The notes under the pieces were generated by a model. The model was not told the DNA's origin and did no database searches. It saw only the letters and a list, made by a program, of their open reading frames with translations. Shown in pieces: positions 8,693-20,442 of a stretch of DNA of 24,094 nucleotides. The first letter of the stretch is position 1. Each line of letters begins with the position of its first letter. This DNA is from an uncultured virus (IMG/VR IMGVR_UViG_3300032214_001084) (lineage: Duplodnaviria; Heunggongvirae; Uroviricota; Caudoviricetes): IMG/VR virus record IMGVR_UViG_3300032214_001084; one strand, written 5' to 3'. The position numbers and the translations under genes are program-made.

Positions 8693-8998
8693 TCAGCAGT
8701 AGTAACGGCCAACGATGACATCATCGCCGCACAGTTTGACTAACATTCCGCTGAAGTAGGTGTCGCTGCTGATACCGTGCCAACCCTTAAACATACCGTC
8801 AGGGTTAGTGTTAGTCAGGAAGTCGGCGAGATTGTGATACTCACCGCGATACTTAAAGAATGAACAATTAGAGTCAAACTCTTCATCGCTCATCCAATCA
8901 AACTGTTTGCGGAGTTTGGCACGCTCAGCGCCAGAGAATTCGCAAGTGAACAACAGCCGGCGTGGCTGATTGTTGGTCTTAATTGTCAATTCAGTCAT
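8693..8998 (-). CDS. conserved phage hypothetical protein (first gene of leftward array)
   Basis: IKTNNQPR.L...FFKYRG..Y.L.DF...W.G..SD.YFSG.LVK...VIVGRY pattern of phage early genes. Confidence 0.8.
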   Translation of the reverse strand: MTELTIKTNNQPRRLLFTCEFSGAERAKLRKQFDWMSDEEFDSNCSFFKYRGEYHNLADFLTNTNPDGMFKGWHGISSDTYFSGMLVKLCGDDVIVGRYYC

Positions 8999-9091
8999 GA
9001 TGATTGTTCACCTGTTAATTGATGTGAATTGTGAGGGTAGAGACCCTCAGAGAATCACGCTAAGCTAGCGGGACTCTATGAGAGATTCTAG

Positions 9092-9574
9092 GTGAAGGCC
9101 AAGCCAATCCCTGCCACTATAGGGAATAAGTTTACAGTGTGTGAGCACTGTGAATCGGGCTTATGGGATAAGGCTAAAGGTAAACCAGCTGGCGTCTTAA
9201 ATAAAGATGGTTACTGGCATGTGTGCTACGAGAGCAAGAGATACCCAGCACACAGAATCGTGTGGTTCCTAGTTAATAACAAGGATCCGGGAGAGTTAGA
9301 AGTAGATCACATAGATAGAGATAAGAGTAATAACAAGATTAGTAATCTTAGAGCGATTACATCAGCTAAAAATAAAGCGAATCGTAACCTTAATAAGTTA
9401 CGCGAAAAGAGTAAGAAAGATCCGTTTAAGATATATAAAAGAAAGAGAGCGAAAGGGTATAAGTATCAAGTCGTTAGGTACATAGACCGAAGACAGATTT
9501 ACTTAGGCACTTTCGACACATTTGAAGAAGCTAATAACTACCAGAACTCTCTAAAACGAGCTGATCATAACTGA
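9092..9574 (+). CDS. HNH homing endonuclease (HNH_3-type with AP2-like C-terminal DNA-binding domain)
   Basis: AHRIVW...EVDHIDRDKSNNKISNLR...N..N; C-terminal YLGTFDTFEEA; AT-rich. Confidence 0.9.
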   Translation: MKAKPIPATIGNKFTVCEHCESGLWDKAKGKPAGVLNKDGYWHVCYESKRYPAHRIVWFLVNNKDPGELEVDHIDRDKSNNKISNLRAITSAKNKANRNLNKLREKSKKDPFKIYKRKRAKGYKYQVVRYIDRRQIYLGTFDTFEEANNYQNSLKRADHN

Positions 9575-10290
9575 TCACGTTTGAAGAGAACCCACACCCA
9601 AATAGAGACCAGGTACGGAATACCTGGCCCCTACAGGATGCAATTCTGGGAAACTGACCCGAAATTAAAGTCAGTTAGGGTGCGCATATAACGCACAAAG
9701 GTTATTAAATTGTGCCCGCAGGATGATGACCGTAGAAGATAACTTCTACAGGCTCTGTCCAGCGTACCTGCATTAAGGACAGATACTCTGGACAGAACAA
9801 TTCTGCGGATTGGAAAGATAAAAAGTGCCCGAGCTTGGTAGGACGGGCTATTGCGTCAGTCAGCACAAACGTATAAAGGTCGCAGCGATACATACATCCG
9901 GGATCTGAGTCTCACTGGGATGCAGCGTGAACGGCGAGCACTATAGTTTGAGCATCTTAACTAACGACAACCTGCCAAAGATAAATACTTTGAGCATGGG
10001 ACCAAGGGCCTCTCGGGCAAGCTACTAGCTCCGGGCCTCCCTTAACGTGACACGCAGGCCATCGTCGGGTGAGCGGGAGATTCTAGTAGGGGCAGGAAGG
10101 GCTTAGGCTCGCGAGAGCTTGTGGGCACACTTCGCCTCTGGCTACTAGCCTCTGAGGGTATCGGTCCCCGTACGCCTAACTGCCAGCCACTACTACCACG
10201 TGCGATCCCTGATGGATCCGCTCTCGCCGTGATGGGCGTCAGTCTTGACGGACGGAAGTCCTATGTCGTCGGACCTCTCGGCCCGTTGCT
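9541..10290 (-). ncRNA. candidate large (~750 nt) structured non-coding RNA / 5' leader
   Basis: No credible ORF; many 7-13 bp helices whose G-U pairs mostly work on the minus strand; GAGA tetraloop; 8-bp long-range helix 9931-9938/10223-10230; promoter just upstream. Confidence 0.6.
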
Positions 10291-10293
10291 GGA

Positions 10294-10353
10294 ATCCTAC
10301 AGCAGGGTACGCAGCTTGTCGGATCAGTAGGGTGACGGTTTGAAGATTGGCAC
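10294..10353 (-). promoter_or_regulatory. leftward promoter P2 (CCGACA-N17-TAGGAT) with upstream GTGMC-N12-GGCAC palindrome
   Basis: -10 at 10294-10299, -35 at 10317-10322, palindrome at 10332-10353, 32 nt from the -10. Confidence 0.6.
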
Positions 10354-10433
10354 AGAGGGGAGCGCATAGGCTCGCAGGCTCTGGCCGATCGACCGCCGGC
10401 TGATCCGGATGGGCGACGCGTGGCGCTGTTGGA

Positions 10434-10466
10434 TTTTCCAGGTTCCGCCTTGCGGGGCTGAGCCCC
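10434..10466 (-). promoter_or_regulatory. boxB/boxA-like antitermination element
   Basis: Minus strand: GC hairpins (GGGGCT-C-AGCCCC / CCGC-AAG-GCGG) then GAACCTGGAAAA, one mismatch from cyanobacterial rrn boxA GAACCTTGAAAA. Confidence 0.5.
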
Positions 10467-10480
10467 ATCGGCTTGACGCC

Positions 10481-10540
10481 AGTATGGCCACACGATCGAC
10501 CCTAGCGATACCGACCTTGTGCCGCTATGTCGATTGGCAC
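10481..10540 (-). promoter_or_regulatory. leftward promoter P1 (-10 CATACT) with upstream GTGCC-N12-GGCAC palindrome
   Basis: -10 at 10481-10486, palindrome at 10519-10540, same 32-nt spacing as P2; -35 is weak. Confidence 0.55.
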
Positions 10541-10580
10541 ACTAGGTGAGCCCAGTGAGCTCAGTGATCAGGGAGAGGAG

Positions 10581-10712
10581 ACGCGCGACGCGCACACCCA
10601 CGCGTAGAAAACGCGCACCCCCGCGCACATGCGCATCATGCGCACGCACACACGCACGCACATACACGCGCACGCACACACGCACACACGCACGCGCATA
10701 CGCGCACGCGCG
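10581..10712. repeat. alternating purine/pyrimidine (CA/CG) tract
   Basis: 76 uninterrupted YR-alternating bases at 10637-10712, with shorter runs from 10581. Confidence 0.9.
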
Positions 10713-10862
10713 AGGTTTGTGTTACATAGTGGGCGCAATCTGCCCGCAATCCGGCCTTTTTTTTATATATACAGCTGCGGTGACGACGATGGCGAGAAGG
10801 GTATGTGTTTCGGCGGGGTAAATTGAGGTTTAAAGGTCGAGTACCAGTATACTGATAGCGCT

Positions 10863-10935
10863 GGGGGTCTAGCTATCTGGTGAAAGCGGTCGACTCATAA
10901 TCGATTTCAGGCGAGTTCGATCCTCGCGACCCTCA
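10863..10935 (+). tRNA. tRNA with CAT anticodon (Ile2-lysidine or elongator Met)
   Basis: GGGGGTC/GACCCTC acceptor, GTCGA-CTCATAA-TCGAT anticodon arm, GCGAG-TTCGATC-CTCGC T arm; no encoded CCA. Confidence 0.9.
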
Positions 10936-11015
10936 TTAAAAAAATTTTTCGCCGCGTGGACACTGTGTAAAACCTTTTTCCGCACTTAAGCTTGTATATA
11001 CGTTCGTGCAATCGA

Positions 11016-11333
11016 ATGCTTTCCCCGAATGTGCGGCAAAAAGTCGAATTTATTTGCCAGCGGATTGCTAAAGGAGAGGAAGTTCAGTTCAAAGAGATGG
11101 AATGGGTTCAAAAATGGGCCAAATCGAACCATTCTGTCGACGCTATGCTTAGAAAAGCACGTCGTGAAGCTATAAGTGGCGGTTTTGAGGAAGGAAGTCT
11201 CGATGACTTCATGCAAAAAATGGATTTGGGTGACCCTGATCCGTCAAATCACCTGCAAGGTGCCCAAGATCCATTGACTTTGGCCGAGTGGTTTTCCGAA
11301 AAGCGGAAATGGTTTAGAGGGACAGCCGAGTAA
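11016..11333 (+). CDS. conserved cyanophage hypothetical protein
   Basis: MLS...IC.RIA.GEEV...EM.W..K.AK...DDFM..MDLGDPDPSNH pattern recalled from cyanophages; ATG at 11016. Confidence 0.85.
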   Translation: MLSPNVRQKVEFICQRIAKGEEVQFKEMEWVQKWAKSNHSVDAMLRKARREAISGGFEEGSLDDFMQKMDLGDPDPSNHLQGAQDPLTLAEWFSEKRKWFRGTAE

Positions 11334-11401
11334 TCTGCTACGGAATGCCTTATTTTTTATAGGCTTACCTTAGACTTTTAAAACACATCAGAATCACAGC
11401 T

Positions 11402-11884
11402 GTGAGGCCAAGGCAAAACCTAGTCCAGGCGCTCGAATTCAATCGTCACGCTCAAACTCTTGTCAGTTTGACTGAAACTGAGCGTGTAACTTCTGAAGAT
11501 ATCTTCTTAGTACTTGATCTAAACGAATTTCAGGCTGTATCACAACCAAAACGCATCAGTTTGAATAACTTAAAAGCCTCCCTCGGCTCTTTACCAGTTA
11601 CTTACTCAACCACTTTTGTAGATTCATCAAGTTATAACGTCACGGATACTGATTACTACATTGGAGTTAATTACTCCGGTGTCGTTACCGTGGTCATGCC
11701 GCCCGCTCCCGCCACGGGGCGTGTAATCATGGTAAAAGATGAAAGTGGAAACGCAGGTTCTGGAGTCAACAGAAACATACGTATCTCAGGGTCCGCACAA
11801 ATAGATGGAGAGGATGAAGCTATTATTAGTTATGACGATGGGTCTTTGACTCTTATTTATCGCGACGGTTGGAGAATCATCTAA
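11402..11884 (+). CDS. probable virion structural / tail-fibre-associated protein
   Basis: DYYIGVNYSG.VTV..P....GR...VKDESG...I.G beta-repeat typical of cyanophage fibre proteins. Confidence 0.65.
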   Translation: MRPRQNLVQALEFNRHAQTLVSLTETERVTSEDIFLVLDLNEFQAVSQPKRISLNNLKASLGSLPVTYSTTFVDSSSYNVTDTDYYIGVNYSGVVTVVMPPAPATGRVIMVKDESGNAGSGVNRNIRISGSAQIDGEDEAIISYDDGSLTLIYRDGWRII

Positions 11885-19105: not shown

Positions 19106-19187
19106 GCTGCAGTGGCGGAATGGTAGACGTTGCGCACTTAAAATGCGCTGAGTTAATCTCGTGTGGGTTCGAGTCCCACCTGCAGCA
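19106..19187 (+). tRNA. tRNA-Leu(TAA)
   Basis: GCTGCAG/CTGCAGC acceptor, GCGCA-CTTAAAA-TGCGC, long variable arm, GTGGG-TTCGAGT-CCCAC; TGcTATAGT extended -10 at 19088-19096. Confidence 0.95.
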
Positions 19188-19202
19188 TCACATCACTTCA
19201 AC

Positions 19203-19643
19203 ATGGCCGCACAACGCAAAAAACACACCGAAACTCAGCTAAGCGGGTTTTACAGTTTTAACCAGATCAAAGACTGCCCAGCCTGCAATAAACGTAGTTT
19301 TAAGGTTATTGAAAGCAGGAAGACTTTTGACGGCACCCGCAGGAGGTACGAGTGCACATCGTGCGATTTTAGGCAAACTATGTATGAAATCCCTTCTGAG
19401 TGTTATGAAGAGTTAAGGGTGCTTCGTTCAAAGTTTGCTCTTATACGCAACGCTGTCTTTGAAGCTGAACCTAAGCCTCAAACACCTCTTAAGTCAGATG
19501 GAGCGACTGTTGTAAGCGTGGAGGTTGACGAGATCCCTTGCTGTGATTGTGTTCATCTGACTACTAACGGTTGTTCTTTTGATATCCCAGAAGCGCAAAC
19601 AGAGGATGCCAAAGGGTGCAATCTGTTTCAGGCTTTAGTCTGA
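19203..19643 (+). CDS. NrdR-like zinc-ribbon protein without ATP cone
   Basis: CPAC...KVIESR...TRRRYECTSC..RQTMYE; C-terminal Cys cluster; track start lies inside the tRNA, so ATG 19203 is used. Confidence 0.75.
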   Translation: MAAQRKKHTETQLSGFYSFNQIKDCPACNKRSFKVIESRKTFDGTRRRYECTSCDFRQTMYEIPSECYEELRVLRSKFALIRNAVFEAEPKPQTPLKSDGATVVSVEVDEIPCCDCVHLTTNGCSFDIPEAQTEDAKGCNLFQALV

Positions 19644-19671: not shown

Positions 19672-20442
19672 ATGTCAGAGTCGATTCCCGTACTAGGTAC
19701 TGCAATCGTTAATAATCCATACTGGCTACACAGGCTCTTTATGAGCATAGATTATCCTGTTGATAATTTTGTTGTATTTAATAACAACGGCAGAGGTCAG
19801 ATTACTGAGGCCGTCGACAGCGTTCGCAAGCTGTCTAATCCGTTTGTTAAGCGGGTCCATGTCACTCATATGCCGGCGAATGTCGGGTGCTCTGGCGCTT
19901 GGAACCTGATCATTAAGTGCTTTATGAAAGCACCTTATTGGGTTATATCAAATCACGACATTATGTTTGAGCCTGGTTTCTTGGCTGAGATGAATGAAAA
20001 GGCTCAGGACGTAGAGACTGGGATAATTCACGGATCTGGCGGTGGTTGGGATATCTTTCTTCTCAAAGATTGGGTTGTCACTAAATATGGTTTGTTTGAC
20101 GAAAATCTATACCCTGGTTATTGCGAAGATATGGATTACGGTATGCGTTTTATACACGATGACTTAAAGCGCATCCTCAGCTTGGATCACGAGTACTATC
20201 ACGGAACTCGCAAAGATTATTCAGACGGCTCACAAACTTGGCGATCTGAGCCCCGATTACAGACGGCTGTTCACGTAGCTCACGAACTTAATAAACGATA
20301 TCTTCATATGAAGTGGAGTGAAGCGTGGCAAGCTCATGTTGATGGGGAGACGTATAAAACGCCTTTTAATGTTCCTGAGCTTCCTGTTGATTTCACAACG
20401 TATGATTTAGAGTTTGTTCGCCGTAAGCACTTAGGTTTTTAG
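19672..20442 (+). CDS. glycosyltransferase family 2-like protein
   Basis: N.G.SGAWN, ISNHD (DxD-like), GLFDENLYPGYCEDMDY. Confidence 0.8.
   Translation: MSESIPVLGTAIVNNPYWLHRLFMSIDYPVDNFVVFNNNGRGQITEAVDSVRKLSNPFVKRVHVTHMPANVGCSGAWNLIIKCFMKAPYWVISNHDIMFEPGFLAEMNEKAQDVETGIIHGSGGGWDIFLLKDWVVTKYGLFDENLYPGYCEDMDYGMRFIHDDLKRILSLDHEYYHGTRKDYSDGSQTWRSEPRLQTAVHVAHELNKRYLHMKWSEAWQAHVDGETYKTPFNVPELPVDFTTYDLEFVRRKHLGF

Follow-up and report, generated by a model that had tools for sequence, protein, structure and literature searches.

GOLLD RNAs occur in phages and prophages, often next to transfer RNA (tRNA) genes. Here we describe a large RNA on the minus strand, at positions 9562 to 10322, of a 24,094-nucleotide (nt) stretch of DNA from an uncultured virus (IMG/VR record IMGVR_UViG_3300032214_001084); the whole stretch, which we call the window, is apparently part of a tailed-phage genome. 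The large RNA shares with GOLLD (RF01998) and ROOL (RF03087) a length of several hundred nt, a multidomain build, an apparent phage setting, a tRNA gene in the vicinity (here ~570 nt away and on the opposite strand), and support from covariation; these traits of the two known classes are partly general background and partly taken from a preprint (10.1101/2024.12.08.627333), which also describes RNA-only multimeric assemblies of both, resolved by cryo-electron microscopy. Unlike GOLLD and ROOL, neither of whose models matches the window or four homologous loci, the large RNA lies immediately upstream of a long operon, in the same orientation, and it belongs to one small lineage.

Other described systems resemble the locus in position rather than build. 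The HK022 put and lambda nut sites lie in the promoter-proximal leader of a long phage operon that host polymerase transcribes, where we would also place the large RNA, and two adjacent stem-loops of the large RNA (H1 and H2 below, together 9730-9798, 69 nt) are about the size of put; the whole leader is about 10 times larger, with parts (D1-D4 below) that are dispensable in related phages. Like the lambda PR′-tR′ leader (the Q-gated 6S RNA), the large RNA would be a noncoding transcript upstream of an operon of ~25 kb, whose first gene is preceded in relatives by a terminator-like hairpin, but it heads an early/replication block instead of late genes, is far longer and more structured, and is accompanied by no Q-like protein that we identified. 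Similarly, ColE1 RNA II is matched by a putative structured noncoding transcript of ~500-700 nt in a phage with a family-A polymerase, whereas at the locus we found no origin signature, no turn in the GC skew, and no antisense partner in a promoter scan. An earlier survey (Fremin, Bhatt and Kyrpides 2023, PMC10690425) also drew on IMG/VR and, as we do, looked for structured RNAs through covariation between the genes of viral contigs; its candidates measure 29-151 nt, its table mmc7 contains none of six sample numbers of the homologous contigs, and at most single hairpins of the large RNA could be among its candidates. A full-text literature search returned no description of the large RNA, and one 2026 preprint on a phage RNA deals with a different RNA. 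The large RNA matches no catalogued family and is apparently previously undescribed.

Over 9562-10322, minus strand, the sequence is noncoding, is conserved in 15 sequences, and keeps its helices by compensatory change. These 15 are the distinct sequences left after removal of duplicates, and they fall into two clades (A and B, 64-75% alike), with mosaics such as L060 and L082. We hold with high confidence that the large RNA is a genuine minus-strand structured RNA. Regarding the covariation as solid, the position as suggestive, and any mechanism as a guess, we judge this to be a genuine large structured RNA, apparently not described before, from a small lineage of uncultured phages. Few large structured RNAs have good support from covariation, and up to now every new class of them has opened up new biochemistry (ribozymes, riboswitch-like leaders, RNA-only cages). 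The place of this one, at the head of an early/replication block of ~25 kb, is telling: if it is a cis-acting leader, it provides a system for studying how host polymerase is committed by a phage to so long an operon, and if it is a free RNA, it is one more in the small set of giant phage RNAs. Its parts, in 5′ to 3′ order of the RNA, are as follows.

10270..10285, minus strand: D1, a hairpin of 6 base pairs (bp) with a GNRA loop (GAGA; GAAA in one relative), supported by covariation
~10169..10253, minus strand: D2, a long irregular hairpin of ~100 nt in clade A and ~120 nt in clade B, present in 15/15 folds
9998..10168, minus strand: D3, a multibranch domain closed by an 8-bp helix (10161-10168/9998-10005), supported by covariation
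10091-10136, 10022-10089 and 10008-10018, minus strand: the branches of D3, which are P4, P5/P5a/P5b and a small GNRA-type hairpin, respectively
9799..9997, minus strand: D4, a variable region of ~207 nt in clade A and ~157 nt in clade B
9752..9798, minus strand: H1, a long hairpin with near-invariant arms and the first element of the 3′ module, recognized by sequence conservation
9730..9751, minus strand: H2, a short hairpin with 70/84 alignment cells paired and A-U to G-U changes only
9680..9696, minus strand: H3, a hairpin of 6 pairs with all cells paired, one of the pairs being compensatory
9652..9676, minus strand: H4, a hairpin with 79/81 cells paired
9589..9647, minus strand: H5, a long hairpin, followed in relatives by a U-rich stretch
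9562..9587, minus strand: H6, two GATCA motifs (TGATCA-N-TGATCA), the last conserved element before an insertion

We analyzed the whole RNA in an alignment of six full-length sequences (A3), with a consensus structure from RNAalifold. The 214 predicted pairs are formed in 94.1% of 1262 cells, and 44 of them are compensatory, against 21.4 ± 2.8 in shuffles (0/500); sliding the 3′ partners by 1-3 columns leaves at most 7. For D3, with 11 sequences, 51 pairs are predicted with 96.4% of cells paired, and 16 pairs are compensatory (9.6 ± 1.5 in shuffles, 0/500; at most 4 in slid controls). Because these structures are predicted on the same alignments that serve for the pair counts, we added a null in which alignment columns are permuted within classes of gap content and conservation and the result is refolded. 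Against this column-shuffle null, D3 has an energy of -48.4 vs. -27.5 ± 3.8 (0/200) and 16 compensatory pairs vs. 3.1 ± 1.8 (maximum 9), and D1-D3 together have an energy of -94.9 vs. -59.8 ± 4.6 (0/100), with 29 of 96 pairs compensatory vs. 9.5 ± 2.3 (maximum 16). The z scores under this null lie between -5.5 and -7.6.

Most measures also distinguish the two strands. Under the column-shuffle null, D1-D3 have a z of -7.6 for the minus strand vs. -4.0 for the plus strand, and the RNAalifold energies are -96.3 vs. -82.9 for D1-D3 and -101.0 vs. -53.3 for the 3′ part (minus vs. plus). Terminal loops are of the GNRA type on the minus strand only, where they exchange among GAGA, GAAA, and GGAA. An earlier note on this DNA, made by a model from the sequence alone, had remarked that wobble pairs favor the minus strand, and we count 201 G·U cells vs. 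23 A·C cells, a ratio biased by the prediction of the structure on the minus strand. The 750 nt at 9541-10290 outlined in the same note fold better than shuffled sequence (-293.4 kcal/mol, z -5.8, with 0/20 shuffles as good on the minus strand; -260, z -3.0 on the plus strand); this excess, however, is due largely to near-perfect hairpins in the 3′ part.

Several results speak against a structured minus-strand RNA. D3 taken alone scores alike on both strands (-48.4 vs. -48.8, RNAalifold), and the single-sequence energy of D1-D3 alone (9998-10287) is ordinary, with a z of -0.77 and 44/200 shuffles as good (z +1.39 on the plus strand), so that single-sequence energy alone cannot carry the claim. 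Furthermore, the consensus structures come from the alignments on which the pairs were counted, and these hold 15 sequences from two clades and mosaics. In nine relatives, the 500 nt that lie upstream of H1 have a fold z of -1.0 to -3.5, which differs little between the strands and is uninformative.

The earlier note had outlined a candidate noncoding RNA at 9541-10290. That this is a noncoding RNA region stands; its boundaries do not, since 9541-9574 is the end of an HNH open reading frame (ORF) and the conserved unit runs over 9562-10322, minus strand. Several helices proposed there from the window are kept in relatives: 9603-9615/9621-9633 in H5 is paired in 117/117 cells and 9754-9762/9788-9796 in H1 in 109/125, and those of H4 (9652-9660/9668-9676) and H2 (9732-9738/9743-9749) have the cell counts listed above. 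A helix thought to enclose the H1 and H2 stems (9716-9723/9801-9808) is paired in only 54/87 cells and an 8-bp long-range helix (9931-9938/10223-10230) in 58/119, the latter being perfect only in the window and its closest relative; we rejected both. The multibranch domain is real and is our D3, but it lies at 9998-10168 and not at 10083-10196. The 5′ GNRA hairpin, D1, covaries as well: in alignment A5 its pairs 19/30 and 20/29 stay paired as GU 10, AU 4, GC 1 and as CG 6, GU 5, GC 4, respectively.

The remaining domains differ in how they are conserved. To the eye, D2 is the clearest case: it differs in sequence between the clades, yet it forms one long irregular hairpin in 15/15 single-sequence folds, and 11/24 of its pairs (helices 4-8 of A3) are changed on both sides; within clades it varies little, with 3/31 and 1/33 pairs compensatory. 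For D3, we considered by eye an alternative in which 10141-10149 would pair with the region of the GNRA hairpin, and the first CUAG segment with 10083-10089; covariation does not support it. In D4, the hairpin at 9976-9992 covaries, appearing as CAAAG/CUUUG, GUAGG/CCUAC, and GCAGG/CCUGC in different relatives; the other D4 helices (18-23) are weakly supported. The large RNA contains three GNRA-type loops and a conserved CCUAAG internal loop, which may resemble a tetraloop receptor. The apical 13 bp of H5 show UA/GC, AU/UA, and AU/UG exchanges. H1 (helix 24), present in one copy per genome, has two sequence-conserved arms and 0 compensatory pairs, and the GATCA pair of H6 is invariant in 15/15 rows of alignment A4, distant relatives included, so that helix 30 never varies.

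The stretch carries no credible protein gene and matches no Rfam family. As the earlier note said, there is no convincing ORF: only short ORFs occur in 9575-10860, and the three tested have no Pfam match. A conserved coding signal, which that note named as a finding that would speak against its proposal, is absent, all six frames being interrupted by at least two stops within the initial 520 nt (or over the full length of shorter sequences) in 15/15 homologues, and gaps of 1 and 2 nt are frequent in the alignments. A cmscan of 4227 Rfam families gives no match in 9541-10322 at the gathering score or at E values up to 10; over 8900-11500 it returns only tRNAs and low-complexity chance matches, all outside 9541-10322. 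Rfam scans of four homologous loci, at E values up to 1, have nothing inside the large RNA, and those of five distant-relative loci have repeat-driven chance matches only. Signatures of group I and group II introns, RNase P, and transfer-messenger RNA, none of which the earlier note had seen, are likewise missing from the Rfam results, and ARAGORN reports no transfer-messenger RNA. The notion of an unassigned large minus-strand phage RNA is thus supported by the Rfam null, the covariation, the strand bias, and the lack of a coding signal; relatives exist, and their compensatory changes lie above the nulls.

We retrieved homologues by several routes. Using the first leftward gene as an anchor, we obtained 21 viral loci, 5 of which can be aligned to the window at 69.5-75.7% identity over 1437-1835 nt, starting at 9562 and running past the tRNA, and 3 more of which align up to the ends of their contigs. 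Scanning with the pattern of an invariant 16-mer at the upstream edge of the RNA found 22 viral stretches (7 homologous, 15 not), and a D3 motif scan of metagenomes found 30 (12 homologous, 18 not). A first D3 pattern (a 21-mer) had 0 matches in viral contigs, and a second one recovered the same 7 IMG/VR contigs. The homologues are uncultured phages of ~85 kb. The large RNA has no match by blastn in 50,697 deposited phage records, and none of the 14 stretches from a scan of one genome per prokaryote species is credible, the best of them reaching 15.2 bits (E 0.015) with a score that comes from the 20-mer itself. A covariance model of D3 (R1) scores 147-212 bits in 17 sources, including the window, all of them known homologues, and has no match in the distant relatives. 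By these searches, the large RNA is restricted to a single small lineage of phages (7 IMG/VR contigs); R1 and alignments A3, A5, and A6 can seed a wider search.

Within this lineage the parts of the RNA have been exchanged. L082 joins clade-B D1-D3 to a window-like 3′ part, L060 is a mix of both clades (A5), and three variants of the sequence upstream of the RNA are distributed without regard to the RNA clades. Recombination at module borders between co-occurring phages seems to be frequent. A profile of the whole RNA finds only the last ~270 positions, H1-H6, in nine distant loci (L002, L004, L015, L021-L027); in these diverged relatives, which lack D1-D4, H1 is 84-100% identical over 38-44 nt. 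Relatives without D1-D4 (L002, L004, L015, L021, L022, and L026; alignment A7) have a different noncoding block of ~450 nt upstream of H1, conserved at 76-90% identity, with 138 predicted pairs, 23 of them changed on both sides, and an unfavorable covariation term (+5.8). Since related phages have a different conserved block at this position, leader RNAs may be interchangeable within the lineage.

What the large RNA does has to be judged from its surroundings, whose features are the following.

10345..10354, minus strand: upstream motif TGTGCCAATC, 23 nt before the -35-like hexamer, with a second copy at 10532-10541
10317..10322, minus strand: -35-like hexamer CCGACA, at the left edge of the conserved unit, with CCGAC in 16/16 loci
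10289..10304, minus strand: invariant 16-mer containing the -10-like TAGGAT (10294-10299), identical in 16/16 loci
9051..9561, plus strand: insertion peculiar to this phage, carrying an HNH ORF (9092-9574), antisense to the RNA
9035..9052, minus strand: small hairpin UGAGGG-N6-CCCUCA before the first gene
8693..8998, minus strand: first gene of the leftward block, 101 amino acids (aa)
10862..10936, plus strand: tRNA-Met, the right-hand limit of the noncoding region, from Rfam and ARAGORN scans

Our preferred reading, which we put forward tentatively as possible though short of probable, is that the large RNA is a cis-acting leader of the early/replication operon of ~25 kb. Host RNA polymerase would start at ~10287 from the block CCGACA-17 nt-TAGGAT and transcribe D1-D4, then the 3′ module H1-H6, and then the first gene. 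The RNA would be the 5′ leader of the operon, ~860 nt long in relatives and ~1.29 kb in the window, where it is longer because of the antisense HNH insertion. Acting in cis, this leader would fit the polymerase or the transcript for a long operon, by terminator read-through in the manner of HK022 put or by stabilization of the 5′ end; alternatively, it would control access to the operon at the hairpins that precede its first gene.

The appeal of the leader reading lies in position, in unbroken linkage to the operon, and in the demand that the transcription of ~25 kb makes on a phage lacking a polymerase of its own. The locus is directly upstream of the leftward gene block and on the same strand. 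In the complete relative G002 (84,285 bp), the RNA block begins at 19868 and is followed by same-strand genes from 20753 to ~45666 (~25 kb), among which are small ORFs, a dCTP deaminase, MoxR AAA+ and VWA proteins, DNA polymerase A, and a D5-type primase-helicase; no phage RNA polymerase was found by Pfam among the 70 larger ORFs scanned. We also count in favor of the leader that the 3′ module is retained even where D1-D4 are missing. As for the minus-strand promoter that the earlier note placed just upstream, a conserved -35/-10-like block with a spacing of 17 nt is indeed there, but it agrees with the sigma-70 consensus at only 8 of 12 positions and is not listed by the promoter scan. Conservation stops exactly beyond the -35-like hexamer, where three otherwise unalignable variants begin, all of which have a GCCRAT/CCGGAT core 23-24 nt upstream of CCGACA. 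No plus-strand promoter-like site appears in a scan of 8900-11100, its three sites all being on the minus strand. Each of the loci and each of three complete genomes has only one copy of the 16-mer, and with a single exact copy per genome we rejected it as a reused phage promoter.

The second copy of TGTGCCAATC lies, in relatives, ~22 nt upstream of a TTGACC -35-like hexamer that belongs to a scan-listed promoter in L013; the window has lost the TTGACC hexamer beside this copy. The motif could be an activator or repressor site common to two leftward promoters.

A number of observations count against the leader reading. We infer the start of the RNA (~10286-10288), its end, and its strand from sequence. 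A search of sequencing runs listed no RNA run containing the stretch; it returned two runs with 0.06 and 0.20 of the sampled words, and the run labelled as RNA is probably DNA. Each half of the promoter-like block matches the consensus at 4/6 positions, below the cut-off of the promoter scan; the invariance of the 16-mer is equally compatible with a place inside a longer RNA begun further upstream, and a TTGACC-18-GATGAT site is found upstream in relatives though not in the window. D1-D4 are missing from 9 related loci that keep both the operon and the 3′ module, and are therefore not needed for the operon as such. In addition, the terminator-like hairpin between the RNA and the first gene in relatives also fits a discrete RNA. 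The dispensability of D1-D4, their modular character, and the terminator-like hairpins downstream fit a free RNA equally well.

That free RNA is the main rival, and we regard it as somewhat unlikely: a stand-alone noncoding RNA, trans-acting or self-assembling in the manner of GOLLD and ROOL, which would be transcribed from its own promoter as a discrete species of ~500-850 nt, terminate at H5 or at the hairpin that precedes the first gene, and have as its targets components of the host or the phage, not its own operon. D1-D4 behave as a self-contained unit, have their own conserved promoter-like block, and are present in a subgroup only, and the modules are reshuffled between clades, as in L060 and L082. 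The size of the RNA, its phage setting, its tRNA neighbor, and its several GNRA loops recall large ornate RNAs, a likeness drawn from general background, and tRNA-Met adjoins the large RNA in L041, L054, and L060 also. However, GOLLD, ROOL, and all other Rfam models are unmatched, and the tRNA is on the opposite strand, ~570 nt off. The terminator-like sites downstream, moreover, are weak: at H5 the scan lists a weak site at 9619-9591, and the hairpin at 9035-9052, which is terminator-like with the tail CCTTTTA in L013 and L016, has a tail in the window that is not U-rich.

A bolder form of the leader reading we consider unlikely. It would make the large RNA a new ornate class of at least 500 nt and four domains, with a defined three-dimensional body that heads the transcript, serving as an RNA-only processive antiterminator in cis, about 10 times the size of HK022 put and allowing one promoter to drive ~25 kb.

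It is improbable, in our estimation, that the locus is a control region at the DNA level only, made up of operators, promoters, or recombination sites, with RNA structure as a by-product of G+C-rich palindromes. Such a region would account for the H1 and H6 arms, conserved in sequence and not by covariation, for the ordinary folding energy of D1-D3 and the likeness of the two strands in D3, and for recombination break-points that cluster at unit edges. It is opposed by the compensatory pairs of D1-D3 in excess of column shuffles, by the many kept pairs that are G·U on the minus strand only, by the strand-specific GNRA loops, and by a D2 whose shape is kept though its sequence is replaced between clades; some 500 nt of sequence-specific protein sites would also be without precedent.

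We likewise give little credence to a replication-origin transcript, of the kind of ColE1 RNA II or the T4/T7 origin promoters, that would prime the family-A DNA polymerase through a hybrid with the A+T-richer DNA downstream. The locus is the largest noncoding region, ~1.3 kb from the HNH ORF to tRNA-Met with short ORFs only, and lies between divergent gene blocks; G+C falls from 0.57-0.63 over the large RNA to 0.35-0.47 at 9301-9900 (~0.42-0.55 elsewhere); conserved GATC-containing repeats (H6) and repeated motifs are present; and the phage group encodes DNA polymerase A and a D5-type primase-helicase. Against this, the cumulative GC skew of G002, a weak guide in phages, has no turn at the locus (~19.9-20.7 kb), we saw no iteron array and the scan no antisense promoter, and the downstream elements H1-H6 covary as minus-strand RNA hairpins.

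A hidden or decayed protein gene, or an unusual genetic code, is hardly credible: the window has a 62-aa ORF at 9705-9893, but the ORFs of at least 40 aa over the 3′ module are not common to relatives (among six sequences examined, 87 aa only in the near-identical L033 and L044, pieces of 43-52 aa in L064 and L054, and none of at least 40 aa in the window and L073), every frame has stops in 15/15 sequences, the alignment gaps are of 1 and 2 nt, and the three ORFs tested lack a Pfam match. We also rejected a decayed copy of the nearby 991-aa gene of some relatives, to which there is no similarity (best tblastn E 0.64).

The window departs from its relatives between the RNA and the first gene. 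In 8/8 relatives that span the junction, the equivalent of 9562 is joined to that of 9050 through ~61 nt with no intervening gene, and therefore 9051-9561 is an insertion specific to this phage; it is missing even from a relative that is 89-94% identical. Its ORF matches Pfam HNH_3 (E 5e-13), and the gene looks like a free-standing homing endonuclease in an intergenic site.

To the left of the RNA, small leftward genes run from 8998 to past 668; the first of them has no match in Pfam or PHROG, and ESM Atlas gave no usable hit. To the right, rightward genes begin at the tRNA-Met at 10862. Products recognized in the window by Pfam or PHROG are a dCTP deaminase, a YkuD-like protein, a DPBB lytic transglycosylase, a methyltransferase, an NrdR-type zinc ribbon, and a glycosyltransferase. 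A 409-aa virion protein matches 172 records, 129 of which are named Synechococcus, and its best database relatives are an uncultured Caudoviricetes record (55%) and Synechococcus phages (~50%). We use the labels "cyanophage" and "early" provisionally, on the basis of gene content alone.

Other observations concern the assemblies and the neighboring sequence. H1 occurs in several sequence contexts in one sample (with loose ends at 9752, 9756, and 9794), and five homologue contigs (L045, L060, L066, L069, and L082) end shortly after it; H1 probably breaks assemblies as a shared repeat, and a genome terminus is an unlikely cause of the contig ends, the locus being internal in two complete genomes with terminal repeats. 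At 10580-10715 there is a long alternating purine-pyrimidine tract (CGCA/CACG units) that gives rise to spurious mir-297-type Rfam matches; similar tracts lie in the same place in several relatives, including the distant L024 and L027, and T-rich sequence takes their place in L013 and L018. A run of T8 followed by ATATATA at 10756-10773, ~90 nt upstream of tRNA-Met, is kept in 6/6 full-length relatives (alignment A1) and may be a rightward promoter or a terminator tail. An ORF of 787-1003 aa without a Pfam family stands beside the intergenic region in some relatives (L024:154-3135, L027:196-3207, L002:2449-5424, and L016:697-3060) and is missing from L013, L018, and the window. A comparison of the window's four ORFs of 160 aa led us to reject the idea that they are paralogues. 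Finally, the NrdR-like zinc-ribbon ORF at 19161-19643 has a listed start that falls 27 nt inside the 3′ end of the tRNA-Leu at 19106-19187, and its true start is therefore probably further downstream.

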